The position numbers and the translations under genes are program-made. From assembly GCA_963806535.1 (NCBI GenBank), contig CAWDYC010000005.1:224001-288000 (forward strand): a stretch of 64,000 bases of DNA, read 5' to 3'. The notes under the pieces are model-generated. The model made no database searches and was not told where the DNA came from. It saw only the letters and a list, made by a program, of their open reading frames with translations. Positions 17,155 through 47,025 of this stretch are shown in pieces. The DNA is from Candidatus Bathyarchaeota archaeon. GTDB lineage: Archaea > Thermoproteota > Bathyarchaeia > Bathyarchaeales > Bathycorpusculaceae. Every line of letters starts with the position of its first letter. Within the stretch, counting starts at the first letter, position 1.

Positions 17155-18864
17155 ATGATTCCTTTGCCTGAAAAAGTTTTAGTCACATCCGCTTGGCCAT
17201 ACATTAACGTCACACCGCACCTTGGCAACCTTGTCGGCTCTGTCCTATCTGCCGATGTCACAGCAAGATATTACAGGCTAAAAGGCGACGAGACATTGAT
17301 GGTTAGCGGTTCAGACACGCATGGTACACCCATCGAGGTGGAAGCGATTAAGCAAGGTATTTCGCCTAAAGAATTAACGGATCGCAACCATGCCAGAGTA
17401 GCTGAGCTTTTTCGCCGATGGGGCGCTTCCTTTGATAATTACACAAGCACCGAAAGTCCCATTCACAAAGAGTTTGTACAAAAAACCCTGTTGGAAATCG
17501 AGAAGAACGGCTACATTTTCGACAAGGAAACCCAGATGCTCTACTGCGAGCATGACCAACGCTTCTTACCAGACCGTTTTGTAGAGGGTAAATGTCCATA
17601 TTGTGGTTGCGAAAAAGCGCGCGGCGATCAATGCGACCTGTGCGGCAGGCTACTTGAACCAACAGCGCTGGTTGAGCCATACTGCGTAATATGCAAAAAT
17701 AAGCCCACAATTAAAACTACCCGACATTGGTACATTGACCTCTCAAAACTATCAGAACCGTTAACAGAATACCTAAAAAATAACCAGCAGTTACCGGTCA
17801 ACGTCAAAAACTTCAGCCTGAACTGGATTAAAGAAGGCTTAAAACCACGAGCAGTCACCCGTGACGTTGAATGGGGAATTCCTGCACCTTTCAAAGGGGC
17901 AGAGGGCAAAACCATCTACGTTTGGGTTGACGCCGTCTTAGGTTACATTTCAGCAACGATAGAGCAATCGGAACGAATGGGGCAACCCGAGTTGTGGCGT
18001 GAATTCTGGTTTAACAAGCAAGCCAAAACTCTATATTTCGTGGGCAAAGACAACATTCCCTTTCACACAATAATTCTCCCAGCGTTGCTGTTGGCTTCAA
18101 GGCAAGGCTATAATTTGCCGTGGAATGTTTCAGCAACCGAATTTCTACAGTTTAAAGGGCAAAAAGCTTCCAAAAGTCAACGTGTCGGCATCTGGATAGA
18201 CGAAGCATTAGAAATGTTCCCCGTTGATTACTGGCGCTTTTTCCTAATAGCTACAAGACCGGAAAGCAAAGACACCAACTTCACATGGAGTGCCTTCATA
18301 GATAAAATAAACGCTGACCTCAACGACACCTTCGGCAATTTCATCCACCGCACTCTGTCATTCATAAACAGCAAATTTGATGGACAAATTCCAGCACCAA
18401 CCAAACTTGAAAAAGACGATGAGGCAATACTGCAAGCGGTGAAAGAAAAGGTTAACCAAGCTGCTAAAGAAATCGAAGATTCATGGCTGCAATCCGCCGC
18501 CAACACACTTATCGGTATAAGCCGAATCGGCAACCAATACCTCAATGACAAAGAGCCATGGAACCTAATGAAAACCGACAAAGAAAAAGCTGGAACCATC
18601 TTCTACGTTACAGCGCAAGTTGTGAAAGCCATCGCGGTTGTATCAGCACCTTTTATCCCAGACACTGCTGAGCAGCTTTGGCAAACACTCAGCCTCCAGG
18701 GAAGTGCAGCTAAAACTAATTGGAACGAAGCCTTAGTTCCTCTTGAAGCTGGACATAAAATAGCCAATCCAAAACCACTATTTCACAAAATTGACTCTGA
18801 CGAAGCAAAACTGGAAGACCAGTTAGCTCAAATTAGGGCTAAACTTGGAAGCCAGCCGAAATAG
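17155..18864 (+). CDS. metG: methionyl-tRNA synthetase
   Basis: TSAWPYIN, HLGN, Zn knuckles, GKDNIPFH, KASKS. Confidence 0.97.
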   Translation: MIPLPEKVLVTSAWPYINVTPHLGNLVGSVLSADVTARYYRLKGDETLMVSGSDTHGTPIEVEAIKQGISPKELTDRNHARVAELFRRWGASFDNYTSTESPIHKEFVQKTLLEIEKNGYIFDKETQMLYCEHDQRFLPDRFVEGKCPYCGCEKARGDQCDLCGRLLEPTALVEPYCVICKNKPTIKTTRHWYIDLSKLSEPLTEYLKNNQQLPVNVKNFSLNWIKEGLKPRAVTRDVEWGIPAPFKGAEGKTIYVWVDAVLGYISATIEQSERMGQPELWREFWFNKQAKTLYFVGKDNIPFHTIILPALLLASRQGYNLPWNVSATEFLQFKGQKASKSQRVGIWIDEALEMFPVDYWRFFLIATRPESKDTNFTWSAFIDKINADLNDTFGNFIHRTLSFINSKFDGQIPAPTKLEKDDEAILQAVKEKVNQAAKEIEDSWLQSAANTLIGISRIGNQYLNDKEPWNLMKTDKEKAGTIFYVTAQVVKAIAVVSAPFIPDTAEQLWQTLSLQGSAAKTNWNEALVPLEAGHKIANPKPLFHKIDSDEAKLEDQLAQIRAKLGSQPK

Positions 18865-18879
18865 AAAAGGGGTCGATTA

Positions 18880-19530
18880 ATGCGAATTATCGCTGATCTT
18901 CACGTACACACAACGTACTCAAAAGATTCTTTGATTACGCCAAAAGACCTTGTTTACTATGCCAAAAAACGAGGTTTGAATGCAGTAGCTGTCACAGACC
19001 ATAATCAGTTAGATGGCGCCTACAAAATAGCTAAAGAAACAGATTTCTTGATTATTCCAGGCATGGAAATCTCCAGCGCTGACGGACATATCGTTGCACT
19101 CAACGTTCATGAACTCATCCCACGAGGCTTAAGCGCTCCCGAAACAGTCAAGCGAATTCATAAAGCAGGCGGAGTGGCAATTGCCTGTCACCCCTACGTA
19201 TACTTCAAAGGATGCCTAAAAGAAAACGTCTGCAGCACCTTTGACGCTGTGGAAGTTATAAATTCTCGAGCTTTCCCCTTCAAACGTAGCGTAAAGAAAG
19301 CGGAGGAAACTGCTAAGAAGCTTGGGCTTGTGCGGGTGGCGGGCACTGACTCGCATTATGGTCCACAAATAGGTTATGCTTACACAATTATTGAGGCACC
19401 AGAGCCAAGTGTTGAAGCTATCGCCAAAGCCATAGTTGAGGGCAATTGCCAGCCTTTCGGAAAAGCTGTGCCCGTTACTTTAAATGTTCTGCTAGAGATC
19501 CATAGAGTCATAAGGATGATTAAAAAGTAG
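18880..19530 (+). CDS. PHP-domain metal-dependent phosphoesterase
   Basis: DLHVHT, VTDHN, CHP, GTDSH. Confidence 0.9.
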   Translation: MRIIADLHVHTTYSKDSLITPKDLVYYAKKRGLNAVAVTDHNQLDGAYKIAKETDFLIIPGMEISSADGHIVALNVHELIPRGLSAPETVKRIHKAGGVAIACHPYVYFKGCLKENVCSTFDAVEVINSRAFPFKRSVKKAEETAKKLGLVRVAGTDSHYGPQIGYAYTIIEAPEPSVEAIAKAIVEGNCQPFGKAVPVTLNVLLEIHRVIRMIKK

Positions 19531-33532: not shown

Positions 33533-34937
33533 ATGAAAAGTTTTCTCGGCTACTTTAAAGAAGGAAACATGAGTTTATTCACTGATTTTTACGAGTTAAC
33601 CATGTGTGCTAGCTATTTTGATAACAAGAACTTTGAGCCTGCTACATTTGACTTGTTTATTAGGCGGCTGCCCGAAAACCGTTCCTACTTCCTTTTCGCA
33701 GGGCTCGAAGAAACCCTTCAATATCTGGAAACAGTAAAATTCACTGAGGAGCAGCTCGGTTATCTTAAAAAACTGGGTTTTAAATGGGATTTTCTTGATT
33801 ATTTACGCTGCTTTAGATTTACAGGTGAGGTTTGGGCTGTTCCAGAAGGCACGGTCGCTTTTCCAAATGAACCACTAATTCGTGTGACTGCGTCGATAAT
33901 TGAAGCCCAACTGGTTGAAACTTTCCTGCTTAATACGGTTAATCTTCAAACTATGATTGCCACCAAAGCTTCCCGGGTAGTTCACGCCGCAAAAGGCAAA
34001 TCAGTAATAGAATTTGGCTTAAGAAGAGAACCTGGCATAGATGCAGGAATGAAGGTTGCTAGAAGCAGCTACATAGCAGGATGCCAAGGTACTAGCAACG
34101 TACTTGCAGGACAAACTTATAACATTCCAGTTTTCGGGACCATGGCGCATTCATTTGTTATGTCTTACACAAAAGAAATTGATGCGTTTCGAGCTTTCTC
34201 CAAAACCTTCCCTAACAAATCCACCCTTCTAATTGATACATATAATGACATTTCAGGCGCAGAAAAAGCAGCAGTTATAGCTAAGGAGCTTGAAGCTAAA
34301 GGTTTTAGGCTTGGCGGCGTTCGCTTGGACAGCGGCGATTTGGCGGAGGATAGCAAAAAAGTTCGGAAAATTCTTGACGATCAAAATTTGGATTATGTGA
34401 AGATTTTTGCCAGTGGCGATTTGGATGAATTCAAAGTAAAGGAACTTCTTGCCAATGGCGCAAAAATTGATTCTTTTGGTGTTGGAACAAAAATGGGTAC
34501 TTCCGCAGATAGACCATATTTGGATGTTATTTACAAACTCTGCGAAACCATTGCTGAGAATGGAGGTTCTTTGCCAATTATGAAGTTAAGCAAAGACAAA
34601 ATCACTTTGCCAGGCAGAAAACAAGTTTATCGCTTAAAAAATAAAATCGGCGAATATGAAAAGGACATTATATGCTCTGGCCGATGAAAAAGTGCACGGT
34701 GAGCCTTTGCTTATCAAAGTCATGGAAAATGGCAAAATAATCTATAAACTTCCGTCACTTGAGGAAATTCGAGCAATCACTGAGAAAAACTTGGCTAAAC
34801 TTCCAGACGGCTACAAAGCGCTGACCGATGCACCAATTTATCCAGTGGAAATTAGCAAAAAACTACAGAATCTAATAAAAACATTGAAGCGTCAATTAAC
34901 AGAAAATGAAATTAATAGCACCAACGCAAAAACTTAA
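33533..34937 (+). CDS. pncB: nicotinate phosphoribosyltransferase (frameshift near 34670)
   Basis: TDFYELTM, EFGLRR, GTMAHS, LIDTY, VRLDSGD, FGVGT. Confidence 0.93.
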
Positions 34938-35055: not shown

Positions 35056-36261
35056 TTGCAAAATCGTCCAGCCATAGTTGCTGTTGGCAGAACCAAGTTT
35101 GGAGAACATTACGGCAAAGAACCAGAAAAGCTGATTGAGGAAGCATGGCTTGGGGCTTCTAAAGAATGTAACATGGAGCGCAAAGACCTAGAAGCTTGTT
35201 ACATGTCAGATTGCTTTCTTCCCATTACTAACAAACTGGGTTTAGAGGAAGGATTCCTCTCAGAACTTACTCAACTTCATGTGCCTATGGAGGTAACTCG
35301 TTCTTTTAGCGCTGCATTGTTAACCGCTTGTCATGCAATTCAGGCTGGAGTTTACAATACTGTCCTAGTGGGTGGTATAGAAAAAATGACAGATCGCTGG
35401 GACAAAATACGCGATGATCTAATGCTTCTGGATGATCCATGGAGCTATTTTGCCGGAGGAACTCCAGAATCAAATCATGAACTCATGCTTAGAGCCTACA
35501 TAAAAAAGCACCACATTAATGGCGAAAAACTTGACAAACTTAATATTGCCTTAGCACAGGTTTCGGTTAAAAATCACGCGAACGCAATCAAAAACAAGTA
35601 TGCCCAATATCATAGAAAGATTACTATTGACCAGGTGTTACATGCAAGGAAAATAGCGCATAAACCTTTAGGACTTTATGATTTTGCCCCAATTTCAGAT
35701 GGCGCTTCTGCTTTAATTCTTACAAGCGAAACTGTTGCTAAAAAACTAAATGATCATCCAGTTTACGTTCTAGGCTGTACTTCAGCAACTGACTACTTGA
35801 ATTATCCTGCAAGAGAAGACCTCTCTCACTTTGTTGCGGCAGAATTAGCTATGAAGAGTGCTTCCAAAATCGCTAAAACAGCCTTGTCTGAAATGCAGGT
35901 TATCGAGGTATATGACCAGTCCACAATGATGGAGCTTGTTTCTCTTGAAGACTTAGGATTCTGCGCACCAGGCACGGCTTGGAAAAGCATACACGAAGGC
36001 TGTCAAAATGATCGCAACTGCTATGAAGTAGATGGCAGACAACTTTTCGTTAATACTAATGGAGGGTTAAAAGCTGATGGAAACCCATTAGGCGCTACCG
36101 GAGGAGCACAAATCTTCGAAATTTACCGTCAGCTGAGAGGAGAAGCTGGCGAGCGCCAAGTGAAGATTACTGGTTCACAGAAAAACGGCTGTGTTTTAGA
36201 ATACGAAGGCTTTGGAACTAAAGCATACGTTACTGTTCTAGGAGATAAGAAGCTTGAGTAG
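35056..36261 (+). CDS. archaeal thiolase-family protein lacking canonical catalytic residues
   Basis: GRTKFGE, VGGIEKM, PISDGASA, NTNGGLKA.G.PLGATG; CASG, HDCF and GHP motifs altered. Confidence 0.85.
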   Translation: MQNRPAIVAVGRTKFGEHYGKEPEKLIEEAWLGASKECNMERKDLEACYMSDCFLPITNKLGLEEGFLSELTQLHVPMEVTRSFSAALLTACHAIQAGVYNTVLVGGIEKMTDRWDKIRDDLMLLDDPWSYFAGGTPESNHELMLRAYIKKHHINGEKLDKLNIALAQVSVKNHANAIKNKYAQYHRKITIDQVLHARKIAHKPLGLYDFAPISDGASALILTSETVAKKLNDHPVYVLGCTSATDYLNYPAREDLSHFVAAELAMKSASKIAKTALSEMQVIEVYDQSTMMELVSLEDLGFCAPGTAWKSIHEGCQNDRNCYEVDGRQLFVNTNGGLKADGNPLGATGGAQIFEIYRQLRGEAGERQVKITGSQKNGCVLEYEGFGTKAYVTVLGDKKLE

Positions 36262-37761
36262 TGAACCTATAGAGAGACGAGTTTCTTATTTAGGCGACAG
36301 ATTAAAAGCAAGCCGCTGCCAAAGCTGCGGAAAAGAATACTTTGAAATAAGAGATTACTGCACCAACTGCGGCAGAAAAAGCTACGGAAAAATGGACAGC
36401 ATCGACCTATTTTATGACAAAGGCAAACTTGAATTATGTACCTACATTAACGAACCCACAAACAAATTCATGAAATTGTCAAGCTTCATTTATGGAATCG
36501 TTTCTTTTCATGATGGCAAAATCCGTGTTCCAGCAAGATTAACCGACCAATTGATATGCAATGGCGCCGATGTCGATTTTTCAAGCCTTGAGGGCAGAGA
36601 CGTGGTTCCCCGCTTTAGAAGGCGCTATTCAGTCGGTAAAAGTGACGTAATTCCAACTATATCTTTGGCTTTCACTTTAGCCGATGAATACTACCCACAT
36701 CAAGATTACAACATAATTACACCAACCAAAGAATATGAGCTTCCTGGGGTCGTAGGTTATGGCGTCTACACTTCAAAATTCAGAATTAAAGAAAGTGGAT
36801 TGGAACGCGCGGTTCCCTTTATCGATGAAGACGCGGTAACAGCCGCTGTAGAAGCTGGAAAGTTAGCATTGATTCACTCAGGAGTTGACAGCACACTAAT
36901 TGGTAAGGTTTATGTTGGCTCCGAATCTAACCCATATGCTGTTAAACCAATCTCATCGAAAGTCGCCCAGGTTCTGAAGCTTGGAGAAGAAGACGGCGAC
37001 ATACAAGGTGTTGATGCAGTAGACACCCAGTTTGCATGCAAAGCTGCTGCAAGCATGTTCAAAGACGCCTCAGCTCTTGTTAATTATCCAAAGTCAGGAG
37101 TAAAATATGCTATGGTTATCGGCGCAGATAACTCTCAAGCTGCCCCAGAGGCTGTCCAGGCGGCGAATTGGATACATTTGTTGGGTATGGCGGCGCTGCA
37201 TATATTTTTGGTAAACAGGATGTTATTGCTGAAGTTGAAAGCTGGTACTCATGTACTTCTGATACAACAGATTTTTGGCGCAGAGACGGCGAGCTTTTCC
37301 CCATGCATGGTGGCCGATTCACTGGTGACCCAGCCTACTTCAAACACGTTCGCAAGTCAACTAGTAAAATTATGGAACGTTCTAACCTCAAGCCAACTGA
37401 CATAAACTATTTCGTAGCGCATCAGCCAAACCCAACATTTCCAGTTAAAATTGCAAAAGAGCTTGGTTTTAAAGATGAGCAATATCTGCCCTCAATGCAA
37501 ATTAACAAAATTGGCAACACTTATTCAGGTTGTTCACTTACGGGTTTAGCAGCAGTACTAGATATTGCAAAGCCTAACGATCGAATCTTGGTTGCAAGTT
37601 ACGGTTCGGGCGCTGGAAGCGATGCATATTTACTCAGAACTACGAGCCAACTTATTGACAAGCGAAAGCGACAGAAAGTCACGGTCAAATTCCAAACCGA
37701 AAACCCATTTACAGAATACGTGGATTATAATACCTATCGTCGGCTTAAACTTGGCATGTAA
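36254..37761 (+). CDS. DUF35 (Zn-ribbon/OB) :: HMG-CoA synthase fusion (frameshift near 37148)
   Basis: N-terminal CxxC..CxxC plus OB region; GSES.PYAVKP, FACKA, HQPN, IGNTYSG, SYGSGAGSD. Confidence 0.88.
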
Positions 37762-37811: not shown

Positions 37812-39095
37812 TTGATTCTTGAGGACATTGCAAAAGTAATTTATTCACCTGTAACCGCATTCAAAAAGGTAATTGAAAATCCAAAGTATTTGGGTGCCCT
37901 AATTATTCTGCTTCTTTTCATAGGCTTACAAATGGGGTATGCCTATACACAGTTCTCAAAAACGTACACTGAAAGCACATCACCTGCGATCGGTCATCTG
38001 TCAGACTATATCAACGCAACAGCCGCATTGTCCACTGAGCCCAATTCAACGTTGTGGAGAGCAAGTACTGGCGTTGCCTTAATCAACAATTTTACTGATT
38101 ACATCAATTATAGCGTTTACGTCCCAGCTATTCTGGGAAACTATAGCCTATATGGAAACAGCAGTCTTGAAATTGATGCTAACAACACAAACACCATTTC
38201 AGCTGCTTTAAGCAACGCTTTCAACGTCAGCTGTGCAGCTGGTGGCTTTGAAAATTTATCAATGACGATAAAACAAGTTCAGCCTCTTAATACCATTGGC
38301 GCAAGTATAACTCTTTACTCAGTTAATGATTCAAACTATTACACTTATGATTTAACTAATCTTTTGTCGAAACCCCAAAATATTAACCAATGGAACAACC
38401 TAACAATTCCGGTTGGTCCTTCCGCGCAAGGCTGGAGTGTTGGCGGAGCTCCTTCTTGGGGTAACATTACAGCATTAAAGTTGGACTTCAATTCATCTAG
38501 CCCAAATGTCGTTATCCGCATTGGTACTTTGTTCTTCAATGGGGAATATCAAACTTTCATTCAAACCTATGGTCCCACAGCTCTGCTATCTTTCTTAGAG
38601 GCTTTCTCTCTACAATTTGTTTTTAGCTGGTTACTATTAACAGGGCTAATTTACCTCTTCTTCAAAGGGCTAAAAGGCACCGTCACTTGGAAACCACTTT
38701 TCGTTGCAATAGCTTTTGCTTTGTTTGTGATGGTTATTCGATCTGTAATTAACATCGTTGCAGCCTTTACACTGCCAGCAGTCTACTATCCATTTGATGT
38801 CTCACTTGGTGTCACATCTAACCCGTATGGCGCAATATACGTCCCCATACAAGCAGCAGCAACCTATACAGCACAGTCCCAAGCCGTTCTCAACAATATT
38901 GTGGCAATGACATCAGGTTTTAACTTTGTCGTTGAAGCAATGTTCTTGGTATCTTACGTTTGGTTAGGCGCTCTATGCACAATAATTGTCGGCACACTTC
39001 AACCAGAGTTTTCAATGATAAAACGAATTTTGATTTCAGCCGTTAGCATCGCAGTTATGTGGTTTGTCTTAGTGCTGTTCGTGGGTTTTGTTTAG
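37812..39095 (+). CDS. YIP1-like membrane protein with large extracellular loop
   Basis: VIYSPVTAFKKV N-terminus, glycosylation-sequon-rich loop, C-terminal TM helices. Confidence 0.6.
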   Translation: MILEDIAKVIYSPVTAFKKVIENPKYLGALIILLLFIGLQMGYAYTQFSKTYTESTSPAIGHLSDYINATAALSTEPNSTLWRASTGVALINNFTDYINYSVYVPAILGNYSLYGNSSLEIDANNTNTISAALSNAFNVSCAAGGFENLSMTIKQVQPLNTIGASITLYSVNDSNYYTYDLTNLLSKPQNINQWNNLTIPVGPSAQGWSVGGAPSWGNITALKLDFNSSSPNVVIRIGTLFFNGEYQTFIQTYGPTALLSFLEAFSLQFVFSWLLLTGLIYLFFKGLKGTVTWKPLFVAIAFALFVMVIRSVINIVAAFTLPAVYYPFDVSLGVTSNPYGAIYVPIQAAATYTAQSQAVLNNIVAMTSGFNFVVEAMFLVSYVWLGALCTIIVGTLQPEFSMIKRILISAVSIAVMWFVLVLFVGFV

Positions 39096-42513: not shown

Positions 42514-45411
42514 ATGAGAGATAATATTTCAATTAAGGGAGCAAGGGAGCATAACCTCAAAAATATTGATGTTGAGTTGCCCAGAAACAAGTTTATAGTA
42601 ATTACTGGGCTTTCAGGCTCAGGAAAATCAACCCTTGCTTTTGACACCATTTATGCTGAAGGGCAACGGCGTTATGTTGAAAGTCTTTCTGCATATGCAC
42701 GACAGTTTCTCGGTTTAATGGACAAGCCCGATGTTGATTCAATTGACGGGTTATCACCAGCAATTAGTATTGAACAAAAAAGCACCAGCAAAAATCCCCG
42801 CTCAACCGTTGGAACAGTCACAGAAATATACGATTACCTCAGATTGCTCTTTGCACGTATAGGTACACATCACTGCCCCAAATGTGGCAGTTCCATTCAT
42901 CCTCAAAGTCCAGAAAACATTACCAGCTTAATAATGGTTGAAAAAGGAAAAACCCTCACTTTTCTCGCACCAATAATTCGTGGCATAAAAGGAACGCACG
43001 AACAGATTTTTGAAGACCTTAAAAAACAGGGCTACACCAAAATCAGGGTAGACCAGAAAATTTACGAGTCAGATTCTATCAAAGAAGAAGTTAAGCTTGT
43101 GCGTTATGAGAAACATTGGATTGAAGCGGTCATTGACACTGTATGCATTATTGATGATGAGCGTTCCCGCATTTCTGAAGCTGTCGAGCAAGCACTTAAA
43201 GTCGGCAAAGGAACCATGATAGTCATAGATGCTTCAAAAGCTTACACTGAAAAGAAGGAGCTTGAACGCTTCGAGGATGAAACCATGTTTAGTACTTTTG
43301 GAGCCTGTCCAAACCATCCCGAAATAGTTTTTGAAAGTCTCGAGCCGCGTATGTTTTCATTTAATTCGCCTTTTGGCGCTTGCCCAACCTGCCATGGCTT
43401 AGGCGAAATAACAGAAATCTCTGAAGACAAGGTTATTCCAGACAAAAACCTCTCCATTATGGATGGTGCATTAGCCGTTTACGGAAGTATGGACCTCAGC
43501 TGGCGGGCACAGCAGCTTGCAATGGTTGGCAAAAAACATGGTTTTGACATTTTTACTCCAATCAAAGATTTTACGGAACAACAAAAGCATGTGCTATTGT
43601 ATGGAGATCGGGAGCCTGTTAATGGTCAATGGTCCAACGGTGCAACTATGTGGATGCGTGACGGTTGGGAAGGCGTAATCCCACAAACAATGAGGCTTTA
43701 TCGGCAAACGGAGAGTCAATGGCGAAAAGAAGATATTGAAAACTATATGACGTCTAAGCCTTGCAATGTTTGCAACGGAAAAAAATTGCAGCCAGTTGTG
43801 CTTGCCGTAAAGATTTTGGATAAAAGCATTATTGATGCGACTGACTTGTCAATTGAGGAAGCAGTAAACTTCTTCTGTAATTTGCCTGCGCAACTTAACG
43901 AGAAAGAATTAGCAATTGCCAAACAAGTGCTTAAAGAAGTTAACGAGCGGCTTGGCTTTCTTAAAAATGTTGGTTTAGGTTATCTTTCGCTTTCTCGTGC
44001 GGCAAAAACGCTTTCCGGCGGTGAAGCTCAAAGAATCCGTTTAGCTACGCAAATTGGCAGCAACCTGATGGGTGTCCTTTACATTCTTGATGAACCAAGC
44101 ATCGGCTTACACCAAAGAGATAACACTAAACTGATAAGTACACTTCATCGCTTACGTGATCTGGGCAATACACTAATTGTTGTAGAGCATGATGAAGAAA
44201 CCATACGTAACGCCGACTATATCGTTGACATGGGACCAGGCGCAGGAGTTCACGGCGGACACATCGTTGCAGAAGGACCACCCGACGAAATAATGTTGAA
44301 CAAAAGAAGCCTCACAGGCAAATACCTTTCCGGCGAATTAAAAATTGAAGTCCCCGAAACAAGACGCAAACCAATTGGCTACATCACCGTAAAAGGGGCA
44401 CAGGAAAATAACCTGAAAAATCTTAACTTGCAACTACCACTCGGCGTCTTATGCGGAGTTACAGGTGTATCTGGCTCAGGCAAAAGCACATTGATGAACT
44501 TGACAGTTATTCCTGCATTGCACCAAAAGTTTGGCGAAGAAGCTGATAAAATCGGGAAACACGAATCAATCGACGTTCCCGAACTTGTTAGAAACGTTAT
44601 AGTTATCGATCAAGATCCCATTGGACGTACTCCCAGAAGCAACCCTGCAACCTACACTAAGCTTTTCGATGAGATAAGACGAATTTTTGCTTCAACCAAA
44701 GAAGCCAAAGCACGAGGCTACAAAGAAGGACGATTTAGCTTTAATGTGAAAGGCGGCAGATGCGAAACCTGCCAAGGCGACGGCGTTCTGCGAATTGAAA
44801 TGAACTTCCTTCCTGATGTGTATGTCCAATGTAGCGAATGCAAGGGCAAACGTTACAATAAAGAAACTCTCAGTATTCTTTTCAAAGGCAAAAACATTGC
44901 TGAAGTCCTCGACATGACGGTTGAAGAAGCGGCAAAGTTTTTCGAGAACACGCCTCGGATTTCACGCAAATTATCAACGCTATTGGACGTTGGGTTAGGC
45001 TACATTAAGCTGGGGCAGAGCTCCACTACCTTATCAGGTGGAGAAAGCCAACGTATCAAAATTACCCGTGAACTCAGCAAAAACAAGAAGGGCCACGTTG
45101 TTTACATGCTTGACGAACCAACCACTGGTCTACATTTTGATGACACTAAACGATTGATTAGAGTCCTGAATCGGCTGGTTGACAACGGCAACACCGTCTA
45201 CATAATCGAGCACAACTTAGACGTCATTAAAAGCTGTGACTATCTTGTTGATTTGGGTCCTGAAGGCGGTGCTGCAGGAGGCGAGTTGCTAGCTCAAGGA
45301 ACACCTGAAGAAGTTACACAAAATGACGCTTCTTACACTGGCACGTTTTTAAAGAAAATACTTAATCACTCTCCAGAAGAAACTATTTTGGCAGTGAAGC
45401 AGACTGCATGA
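42514..45411 (+). CDS. uvrA: excinuclease ABC subunit A
   Basis: GAREHNLKN, two ABC ATPase modules, Zn fingers. Confidence 0.98.
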
Positions 45412-47025
45412 TCAAAATAACGGGTCCTCAAGACTTTAAGAGTCAAGATATTCCGACCAATCCCGGCGTCTACTTGTACAAAGATGAAGCGGGCGAAATC
45501 CTTTACGTTGGCAAAGCTAAAAGCCTTCGTCCACGAGTCAAAAGCTATTTTGCGAATACTGATCAGCCAGCGAAAACAAGGCAGCTTGTGCTGCACATTA
45601 GAAATATAGATTGGATTGTTGTTAACAACGAAGTTGAAGCACTTCTTTTAGAAAACAAATTGGTCAAGCAGCATACGCCAAAATATAATATTGATCTTAA
45701 AGACGCTAAAACGTTCGCTTATATCTCTCTGACGAGAGAGCCCTATCCTCGAATTCTTACTAGTCGCAAAGTCTCGCGTAAGCTCGAATCGTTTGGGCCA
45801 TACACTGAAGGCTTCATACGACAGGATCTTCAACGTTTGGTAGTGCGAGTCTTCAAGCTGCGCACATGCAAAACCATGCATAAACGTGCCTGCCTTAACT
45901 TTCACATTCATACTTGCACAGCTCCATGCATCGGCAGCGTCACGCTTGAACAATATACTGAGCAGGTGAAGCGGGCACGTTCTCTTTTAAATGGCAACTA
46001 CCAACAAATTATCGAGGAACTTAATTCTCAAATGCATAATGCCTCTTCACAGGGGAAATATGAAGAAGCTCTTGATCTTCGCAACCAAATTGCATCTATC
46101 AGGCTTCTGAACCAACATCAAATCGTTGACAACTGAAAGACGTTTTGACCAAGATATCATGGCCTTTAAGCAGGTGGGCGAGAAAATGTTGGCTGTTCAG
46201 ATGGGTGTGCGAAAAGGTGTATTGCGTGGAAAAACCCAATTTGCCGTCGATTTACAGCCTCAAGTTGAACAAGAATTTCTCAAAGCTTATTATGCAACGA
46301 ATCAAATACCCCGTGAAATACTTCTAAACAAACCTTGCTGGCAGGAAGCTGAAGAGAAAAAAGCTCTTGAAGAGTTTCTCTCCACAAAGCGAAATGGGCC
46401 TGTTTCATTGACGATTCCTAGACGAGCTGATAAATTGGCGCTTGTGCAGTTGGCTGAGAAAAACTTGGAATCCACTTTAGAAGTTGACAGTGCCCTTGTG
46501 GATTTACAATCAGCGCTACAGCTTCCGGTGTTGCCTCGCGTGATAGAGTCTTTTGACATTTCCAATTTGGGTCAGGAACATGTGGTTTCTGGCATGGTCA
46601 CCTTCAGAGATGCGAAGCCTGACAAGAAAAACTATCGTAAATTTAAAATCAAAACTTTTGCGGGGCAAGATGACTTTGCCTCGATGAATGAGGTTGTTTC
46701 GCGAAGGTACAAGCGTTTAGTTGAAGAGAAAAGCCCACTGCCCGATTTAGTGATGATTGATGGTGGTCCAGGGCAGGTGAGCGCTGCAAAGTCAGCACTT
46801 AATAGTCTGGGATTGAAAATTCCGCTGATCGGTTTAGCTAAGGAGCATGAAGAAATTTATTTGCCCGATGATCCTGTACCAAAAAGCTTTGACAAGAACA
46901 GTCGAATGATGTTACTGCTGAGGAAAATCCGCGATGCGACCCATGACTTTTCGCTGAGTTACAACCGTAAGAGAAGGCAGATGAAAATCCGCGAAGAATT
47001 TGTCAAAACACAAAAACCTGATTAA
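45408..47025 (+). CDS. uvrC: excinuclease ABC subunit C (frameshift near 46133; no HhH tail)
   Basis: GIY-YIG PGVY...YVGKAK, UVR domain, FDISN, IDGG. Confidence 0.93.

Follow-up and report, generated by a model that had tools for sequence, protein, structure and literature searches.

Hydroxymethylglutaryl-coenzyme A (HMG-CoA) synthase (HMGCS) is an enzyme at the start of archaeal membrane-lipid synthesis. Here we describe an HMGCS gene that is joined at its 5′ end to a DUF35 scaffold domain and preceded by a thiolase-like gene, in a 64,000-nucleotide stretch of DNA (the window) from Candidatus Bathyarchaeota archaeon, a member of the order Bathyarchaeales in the class Bathyarchaeia (GenBank assembly GCA_963806535.1, contig CAWDYC010000005.1, positions 224,001 to 288,000). 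Judged from sequence, the gene appears to be the normal HMGCS of its lineage, a single chain of 502 amino acids with DUF35 tethered at its N terminus by way of a conserved, ~40-residue linker; in the window copy the frame is broken by one missing base. The fused gene starts at a TTG codon at 36254 and the upstream open reading frame (ORF) ends at 36261, an 8-bp overlap that was noted in the original prediction and through which the two genes are predicted to be translationally coupled. The features of the locus, in window coordinates, are as follows.

35056..36261, + strand: thiolase-fold partner gene, 401 amino acids, catalytic residues lost; stop TAG at 36259–36261 (ORF list)
36254..37146, + strand: frame A, with DUF35, the linker and the first ~140 HMGCS residues; codons 1–297 and the damaged Pro codon
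36254..36673, + strand: DUF35 domain, amino acids 1–140, a rubredoxin-like Zn ribbon and then an OB fold (PF12172, 6ESQ_E, hhalign)
36317..36370, + strand: Zn-ribbon cysteines, CQSC (amino acids 22–25, nucleotides 36317–36328) and CTNC (amino acids 36–39, nucleotides 36359–36370) (direct reading)
36674..36730, + strand: conserved linker from the OB fold to HMGCS, ...PTISLAFTLADEYYPHQ... (alignment)
36731..37761, + strand: HMG-CoA synthase domain, read through the frameshift, residues ~160–502; stop TAA at 37759–37761 (6ESQ_I match)
36923..36925, + strand: catalytic Glu codon (GSES), invariant in 36/36 sequences
37037..37039, + strand: catalytic Cys codon (FACK), invariant in 36/36 sequences
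37143..37146, + strand: run of C, one base short relative to all relatives, the sole defect of the gene (DNA comparison with relatives)
37147..37761, + strand: frame B, the C-terminal part of HMGCS, codons 299–502, with the His and Asn of the tetrad (ORF list and homolog alignment)
37420..37422, + strand: catalytic His codon (HQPN), invariant in 36/36 sequences
37516..37518, + strand: Asn codon of GNTYSG, the fourth tetrad residue, invariant in 36/36 sequences

A scaffold domain fused to HMG-CoA synthase

The reference point for this locus is the Methanothermococcus complex of thiolase, DUF35 and HMGCS (Protein Data Bank entry 6ESQ). In our Pfam search of the window frame, zf-ChsH2 (PF12172) scored 30.3 bits (cut-off 23.2) over amino acids 16–42; at E ≤ 0.01 the table for the window protein lists PF12172 alone for this domain and no OB-fold family, PF01796 included. 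The OB part is covered by a phmmer match to the DUF35 chain 6ESQ_E (residues 17–133, E = 4e-8), obtained with P0003, an intact homolog that is 94% identical across the 299-amino-acid query and that we used as a stand-in for the broken window copy. In a profile–profile alignment by hhalign, 16 fused N-terminal domains and 10 DUF35 proteins of the stand-alone type matched across 134 columns (99.75% probability, E = 2.6e-27), which bears out the predicted identity of the domain as DUF35. The predicted cysteine motifs CQSC and CTNC are both present, in frame with HMGCS; C22, C25 and C36 are invariant in all 16 fused domains, and some of the more distant fused forms (L016–L020) have just three Zn-ribbon cysteines.

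The remainder of the protein is an HMG-CoA synthase by several measures. P0003 matched the HMGCS chain 6ESQ_I over residues 183–496 (E = 9e-73) and scored 361.1 bits against the NCBIfam HMGCS equivalog NF003274 (cut-off 244, residues 166–497); its score for TIGR00748, 313.7 bits, falls under the cut-off of 353.35. For the HMGCS part, the pieces of the broken window copy match only ACP_syn_III_C in Pfam. The Glu–Cys–His–Asn tetrad is invariant in every one of the 36 HMGCS sequences aligned, whether fused or not, and its four codons are all present in the window: GSES, FACK and HQPN, as predicted, together with the Asn of GNTYSG. We infer that the protein makes HMG-CoA from acetyl-CoA and acetoacetyl-CoA for the mevalonate pathway.

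An AlphaFold2 model of an intact ortholog (genome G013), built from a 36-row alignment, has a mean predicted local distance difference test (pLDDT) score of 85.9 and a predicted template-modelling score of 0.90. Confidence drops only at residues 1–12 and 128–135, the latter just ahead of the linker and near the end of DUF35; the block 131–140 has a mean pLDDT of 59 and later blocks reach at least 92. Strands run through residues 46–119. The top Foldseek match of the whole model is 6esq_I (target-normalised TM score of 0.89, root mean square deviation of 2.1 Å). Because only HMGCS-type chains were listed, we judged the DUF35 fold by the sequence and profile matches.

The junction near 36720 was the place at which a stop and restart between the two domains might have been found, and there is neither in the window. 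It is likewise continuous in all 21 fused loci among 30 that we excised for comparison of gene order and thiolase motifs (the other 9 being unfused), and the closest relatives have an uninterrupted frame of at least 501 amino acids in 26 of 30 genomes. Searching public proteins with the 299-amino-acid query returned 1,677 matches at E ≤ 0.001; among the best non-self matches listed, 117 of 119 are 501–511 amino acids long. Every named protein in that list is called ‘hydroxymethylglutaryl-CoA synthase’, and most of the organism labels that are supplied read Bathyarchaeia or Bathyarchaeota. A plain database name of this kind conceals the scaffold domain of the fused form.

Sampling the class more widely (120 other genomes) turned up 26 with a full-length fused match, 19 of them from the order of the window and 7 from other families (44–61% identity); the remaining genomes of this sample mostly have an unfused HMGCS of ~350 amino acids. 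Across the phylum, 34 of 200 other genomes have such a match, 18 of them outside the class. In a set of representatives at 50% identity, roughly nine additional clusters match along the full span of the fused protein, the most distant at 34% identity, and one cluster with the N-terminal fusion includes a protein labelled Lokiarchaeota. For the fused gene, the ratio of nonsynonymous to synonymous substitution rates (dN/dS) is 0.041, calculated from the 25 of 66 pairs with dS < 3; its DUF35 part has a value of 0.043 and the linker ~0.10. The fusion is old, widespread and under strong purifying selection, and is the ordinary form of HMGCS in the whole order and beyond, not a peculiarity of this genome.

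Some other Bathyarchaeia families have open frames of 510–560 amino acids (for example, G124:C1:324874-325782 and G094:C17:13907-14830) that match only HMGCS residues ~184–410 at ~35% identity; these are larger HMGCS-like proteins.

The original prediction described thiolase, DUF35 and HMGCS as three separate polypeptides in the methanogen complex. This is correct, but a scaffold covalently joined to HMGCS has a precedent in bacteria. Streptomyces albus DSM 41398 has an HMGCS with a C-terminal DUF35 (after Vögeli 2018, in excerpts of PMC11522927). Its domain order is the opposite of that in the window, where DUF35 occupies residues 1–140 and HMGCS ~160–502. Several proteins of 469–499 amino acids with HMGCS followed by DUF35 were also present among the 50%-identity representatives (for example, P0177, labelled Chloroflexota); the N-terminal form is archaeal by its labels (Bathyarchaeota or Bathyarchaeia, and Lokiarchaeota). 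We found no description of an N-terminal DUF35–HMGCS fusion in the literature searched, the original complex paper and its supplements lying outside that scope.

The missing base in the window copy

After ‘...ADNSQAAP’ frame A loses sense, and sense resumes one base back as ‘RGCPGGELDTFVGYGG...HQPN...GNTYSG...’, continuing to 37761. Relatives read ...SQAAPRGCPGGELD... across the break site, and alignment with intact homologs of 502 amino acids joins frames A and B exactly at Pro298. The window has CCCC at 37143–37146 where genomes G013, G009 and G010 have CCCCC; other relatives also have one more base there, and the additional C is likewise present in both contigs of relatives that bridge the site in two public sequencing runs (X1 record 7 and X4 record 23). 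Programmed frameshifting was ruled out, because the relatives are all in frame and the window differs by plain homopolymer length.

The fused HMGCS of the order also differs from unfused forms in small ways. Around 18 residues are missing after the first strand-turn (RIKESGL--ERAVP), ‘GEEDGDIQ’ is inserted before the catalytic Cys region and ‘PRGC’ is inserted exactly at the site of the window frameshift.

Alignment of ~30 kb of the window with the syntenic DNA of both G013 and G003 revealed at least four isolated 1-nt indels, each exactly at a break between two same-strand ORFs. Besides the missing C, these are:

18864: 1-nt insertion between ORFs 17155..18864 and 18880..19530, absent from G013 and G003
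34672: 1-nt insertion relative to G013 and G003 in the nicotinate phosphoribosyltransferase gene (ORFs 33533..34687 and 34656..34937)
46133: 1-nt insertion between ORFs 45408..46136 and 46126..47025, absent from G013 and G003

At least four ORF breaks in ~30 kb suggest an unpolished long-read-type assembly, and the nicotinate phosphoribosyltransferase gene, too, was probably split by an assembly indel.

The frameshift could instead be real, the gene being either a recent pseudogene in this strain or the source of two polypeptides: DUF35 with the N-terminal piece of HMGCS, and a C-terminal piece of HMGCS that restarts at TTG 37168. The deletion is, after all, present in the given assembly, the public runs come from relatives rather than this strain and the TTG-started ORF (37168..37761) exists. 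We consider a real frameshift unlikely. The gene is the sole HMGCS of a genome that has HMG-CoA reductase (a tblastn search of the genome found no second HMGCS), and the break would cut the thiolase-superfamily fold between its Cys and His halves. Beyond the break, frame B (204 codons) is 94.6% identical in amino acids to the intact G013 ortholog, with a dN/dS of 0.037 and no second defect or stop; the values for frame A are 95.6% and 0.050. Three more genes in ~30 kb are split likewise by isolated 1-nt indels, and the extra C is present in all relatives as well as in the contigs of the two runs. Given the number of isolated indels, the lack of any other HMGCS and the low dN/dS past the break, the missing C is most likely an assembly error. 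For the window itself, then, we regard the fused gene as ordinary in its lineage and the break as a probable artefact. Left as it stands, the frameshifted copy may be taken for a pseudogene, which would wrongly imply a genome without HMG-CoA synthase.

A thiolase-fold partner without catalytic residues

The thiolase-like protein encoded upstream of the fused gene matches the thiolase chain 6ESQ_A (E = 2e-51). Its nucleophilic Cys is replaced by Thr (‘TRSFSA’), HDCF by YDQS and GH by GN. All four catalytic residues (Cys, His, Cys and His) are therefore missing, and the description of the upstream thiolase as degenerate stands. The protein scores 285 bits against NF004720 (NCBIfam), under the thiolase cut-off of 420, which has a practical bearing on annotation.

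The two types of locus differ consistently in layout. All 21 fused loci have the order thiolase → DUF35–HMGCS and all 9 unfused loci have the canonical order HMGCS → thiolase → DUF35. The thiolase motifs are lost at every one of 15 loci, 14 from the window’s order and one from genome G065 (one gene is partial; YDQS or NDQS replaces HDCF). The degenerate thiolase nonetheless remains under purifying selection, with a median dN/dS of 0.058 (35 of 78 pairs usable).

The fusion and the inactive thiolase, the co-occurrence of which the original prediction had marked for a survey, do not form one package. Five fused loci from other families have thiolases with all motifs intact (one gene is partial), and in one further fused locus the thiolase lacks only the nucleophilic Cys and the Cys of HDCF. 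Conversely, four of the nine unfused operons, all from other Bathyarchaeia families, have a Cys-less thiolase, with AASASG, AGQASG, AGDASG and AGSASG in L027–L030 (genomes G075, G047, G035 and G053, respectively); three of these four also lack the GH histidine. Because intact thiolases stand beside fused genes and Cys-less ones in unfused operons, the fusion and the decay of the thiolase are separable events, and decay has occurred more than once.

We built quick, unrooted maximum-likelihood trees, leaving out the partial thiolases of L011 and L019. Thiolases that adjoin fused genes form one group (99 by the Shimodaira–Hasegawa approximate likelihood-ratio test, SH-aLRT), with the degenerate clade on a long branch within it. 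In the tree of the HMGCS domain, one branch (SH-aLRT 99) has all the unfused sequences on the same side, a pattern with which a single origin of the fusion would be compatible.

The locus can be compared with the Methanothermococcus complex part by part. The likeness extends to sequence matches with all three components, the same HMGCS tetrad, adjacent coupled genes and a modelled HMGCS part that superposes on 6esq_I at 2.1 Å. The methanogen complex consists of three polypeptides encoded in the order HMGCS → thiolase → DUF35; the window encodes two, in the order thiolase → DUF35–HMGCS, and its thiolase, unlike that of the complex, lacks the catalytic Cys, His, Cys and His. The parts are known, and the N-terminal covalent scaffold, the permuted gene order and the degenerate thiolase are what differ. 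A competent thiolase subunit, with Cys, HDCF and GH, is part of what defines the channelling complex; here the corresponding positions read Thr, YDQS and GN. We therefore do not file the window module under the channelling type, although it has the same parts. Nor could the coupled two-step reaction take place within the window pair, given a thiolase subunit that lacks these residues.

In several known systems, relatives of these proteins have been put to other uses, and the window module might in principle be no entry to the mevalonate pathway at all. It could catalyse the acylation or condensation of another substrate, in the manner of the Friedel–Crafts acyltransferases PhlABC (Pseudomonas protegens) and MucABC (Streptococcus), which share its three-part ancestry; PhlA-like chains come next among the structural and sequence matches (9skh_A, E = 1.4e-37; 5m3k_A, E = 8.5e-36). 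Alternatively, the Cys-less thiolase might act as a retro-aldolase with a fused DUF35, in the manner of the steroid aldolases ChsH2(DUF35)–Ltp2 and Shy(DUF35)–Sal, in which a DUF35 fused to a neighbouring pathway enzyme recruits a Cys-less thiolase-fold protein with YDHF or YDCY for HDCF (excerpts of PMC12329534); the window has YDQS. Thiolase–HMGCS–DUF35 complexes have indeed been repurposed before (excerpts of PMC12960953), and the fused HMGCS of the order has indels of its own (the 18-residue deletion and the ‘GEEDGDIQ’ and ‘PRGC’ insertions described above).

We nevertheless regard a role outside the mevalonate pathway as very unlikely. In PhlABC and MucABC the HMGCS-like subunit has lost the tetrad and the thiolase-like subunit, which keeps CxS and GH, is catalytic (excerpts of PMC12960953); the window shows the reverse, with the tetrad present and a thiolase-like protein without CxS and GH, and so does not belong to that type. 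In the steroid systems the enzyme fused to DUF35 is a hydratase, and Ltp2 and Sal keep a catalytic Tyr (excerpts of PMC12329534). In the window system the fused enzyme is HMGCS, and the Tyr of YDQS varies: 3 of 10 genus orthologs have Asn at this position and G065 has Cys, so that it is not a conserved catalytic residue. An aldolase-like role for the degenerate thiolase, suggested by the resemblance of YDQS to YDHF and YDCY, was dropped for this reason. The same observations that identify the enzyme (a tetrad invariant in 36/36 sequences, an ortholog above the NF003274 equivalog cut-off and a genome that has HMG-CoA reductase and in which no other HMGCS was found) also argue against the suggestion in the original prediction that the condensation uses another substrate.

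Acetoacetyl-CoA supply and a working model

The original prediction allowed that acetoacetyl-CoA comes from elsewhere, and for this there is now a concrete candidate. We found exactly two thiolase-family genes in the genome, at unlinked loci on contigs C4 and C5. The second (G000:C4:328308-329483) has SACASS, HDCF and GH intact and scores 489 bits against NF004720 (cut-off 420). Directly after it lies a stand-alone DUF35 gene of 131 amino acids; the pair spans G000:C4:328308-329878 (locus L035, 2309-3876). When we sampled 60 further genomes of the order, 45 had an ortholog of the C4 thiolase at 64% identity or more, and all 11 orthologs inspected keep Cys, HDCF and GH and have a DUF35 gene next door. 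In the trees, C4-type thiolases group with those of unfused canonical operons (SH-aLRT 99), apart from the degenerate thiolase. The nearest described counterpart is the ketothiolase/DUF35 pair Saci_1121/1120 of the Sulfolobus fatty-acid synthase complex (excerpts of bioRxiv 10.1101/2024.07.05.601840); the C4 pair resembles it in composition and groups in the tree with thiolases of canonical HMGCS operons. The intact C4 pair likely supplies acetoacetyl-CoA.

In the known complex, DUF35 bridges thiolase and HMGCS, these two enzymes have a CoA site in common and HMGCS alone is inactive (excerpts of PMC11522927, PMC12329534 and PMC12960953); the endergonic thiolase reaction is coupled to the next step (excerpts of PMC11522927 and PMC12329534). 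By analogy, the tethered DUF35 would dock the thiolase-fold protein encoded upstream, in the role that DUF35 has in the solved complex. Because its Cys, His, Cys and His are lost, the degenerate thiolase is most likely a non-catalytic subunit, which might keep HMGCS soluble or active, or complete the shared CoA site. Acetoacetyl-CoA from the C4 pair would reach HMGCS freely or inside a larger particle, and the two reaction steps would thereby be uncoupled, no longer proceeding within one active-site pair. The fused module (thiolase → DUF35–HMGCS) and the canonical operon (HMGCS → thiolase → DUF35) may be ancient sisters, the lineage having retained the HMGCS of the former and the working thiolase of the latter. 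As a whole, this explanation (a DUF35-tethered HMGCS, a non-catalytic thiolase subunit, supply from C4, sister modules and a break caused by assembly error) is the best that we have, with a probability of roughly 0.7.

Several observations weigh against it. Docking of DUF35 and thiolase is suggested here only by gene coupling (the 8-bp overlap, conserved in 21/21 loci), and a degenerate thiolase that is so conserved might carry a new activity instead of none. Among four high-quality genomes of the order without a C4 ortholog, two have a bacterial-type thiolase in its place (G138:C32:9112-9999 and G049:C3:80533-81426; Thiolase_N, E ~1e-82), and in the other two, G107 (95% complete) and G027 (97%), searches with a protein query and two thiolase Pfam families found only the degenerate thiolase. 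The trees contain long branches (1.02 for the degenerate clade, plus L020 and L021) from which the order of events cannot be read. With regard to the break, the strain itself was not found in public sequencing runs; the best contain at most 0.08 of the words searched, the four that we compared yielded only contigs of relatives, and no RNA run was listed in that search.

The C4 thiolase/DUF35 pair might also share a particle with the fused HMGCS and the degenerate thiolase, for example through mixed thiolase dimers, so that channelling is kept with four genes. Such an arrangement would answer the need to couple an endergonic thiolase reaction, as the known complex does (excerpts of PMC11522927 and PMC12329534); C4-type thiolases are closest to those of canonical HMGCS operons, and the pair is present in most of the searched genomes of the order. 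We find it quite unlikely, as the loci are unlinked (contigs C4 and C5), stand-alone thiolase/DUF35 pairs serve other pathways too, such as Sulfolobus fatty-acid synthesis (excerpts of bioRxiv 10.1101/2024.07.05.601840), and the order also includes genomes in which a bacterial-type thiolase takes the place of the C4 type, or in which none was found.

A stronger version of the favoured explanation, with supply from C4 and sister modules, can be put forward only tentatively. It holds that the two modules were degraded reciprocally, leaving the synthase only in the fused module and thiolase chemistry only in the canonical pair, and that the degenerate thiolase is now obligatory for CoA binding or folding of HMGCS. 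Substrate channelling is credited with making the archaeal pathway thermodynamically feasible, and Bathyarchaeia are among the most abundant archaea of sediments. A scaffold joined to the synthase, together with a thiolase subunit that is degenerate in this order, poses the question by what route acetoacetyl-CoA gets to the synthase in these archaea. If reciprocal degradation did take place, a large and abundant group of sediment archaea either starts lipid synthesis without channelling or restores channelling in an undescribed four-protein particle.

The region 3′ of the fused gene (window 37812–39095) encodes a membrane protein of 427 amino acids with a weak match to the Yip1 domain (E = 0.0011, below the cut-off). 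The same membrane protein follows the fused gene in seven of the nine same-genus loci inspected.

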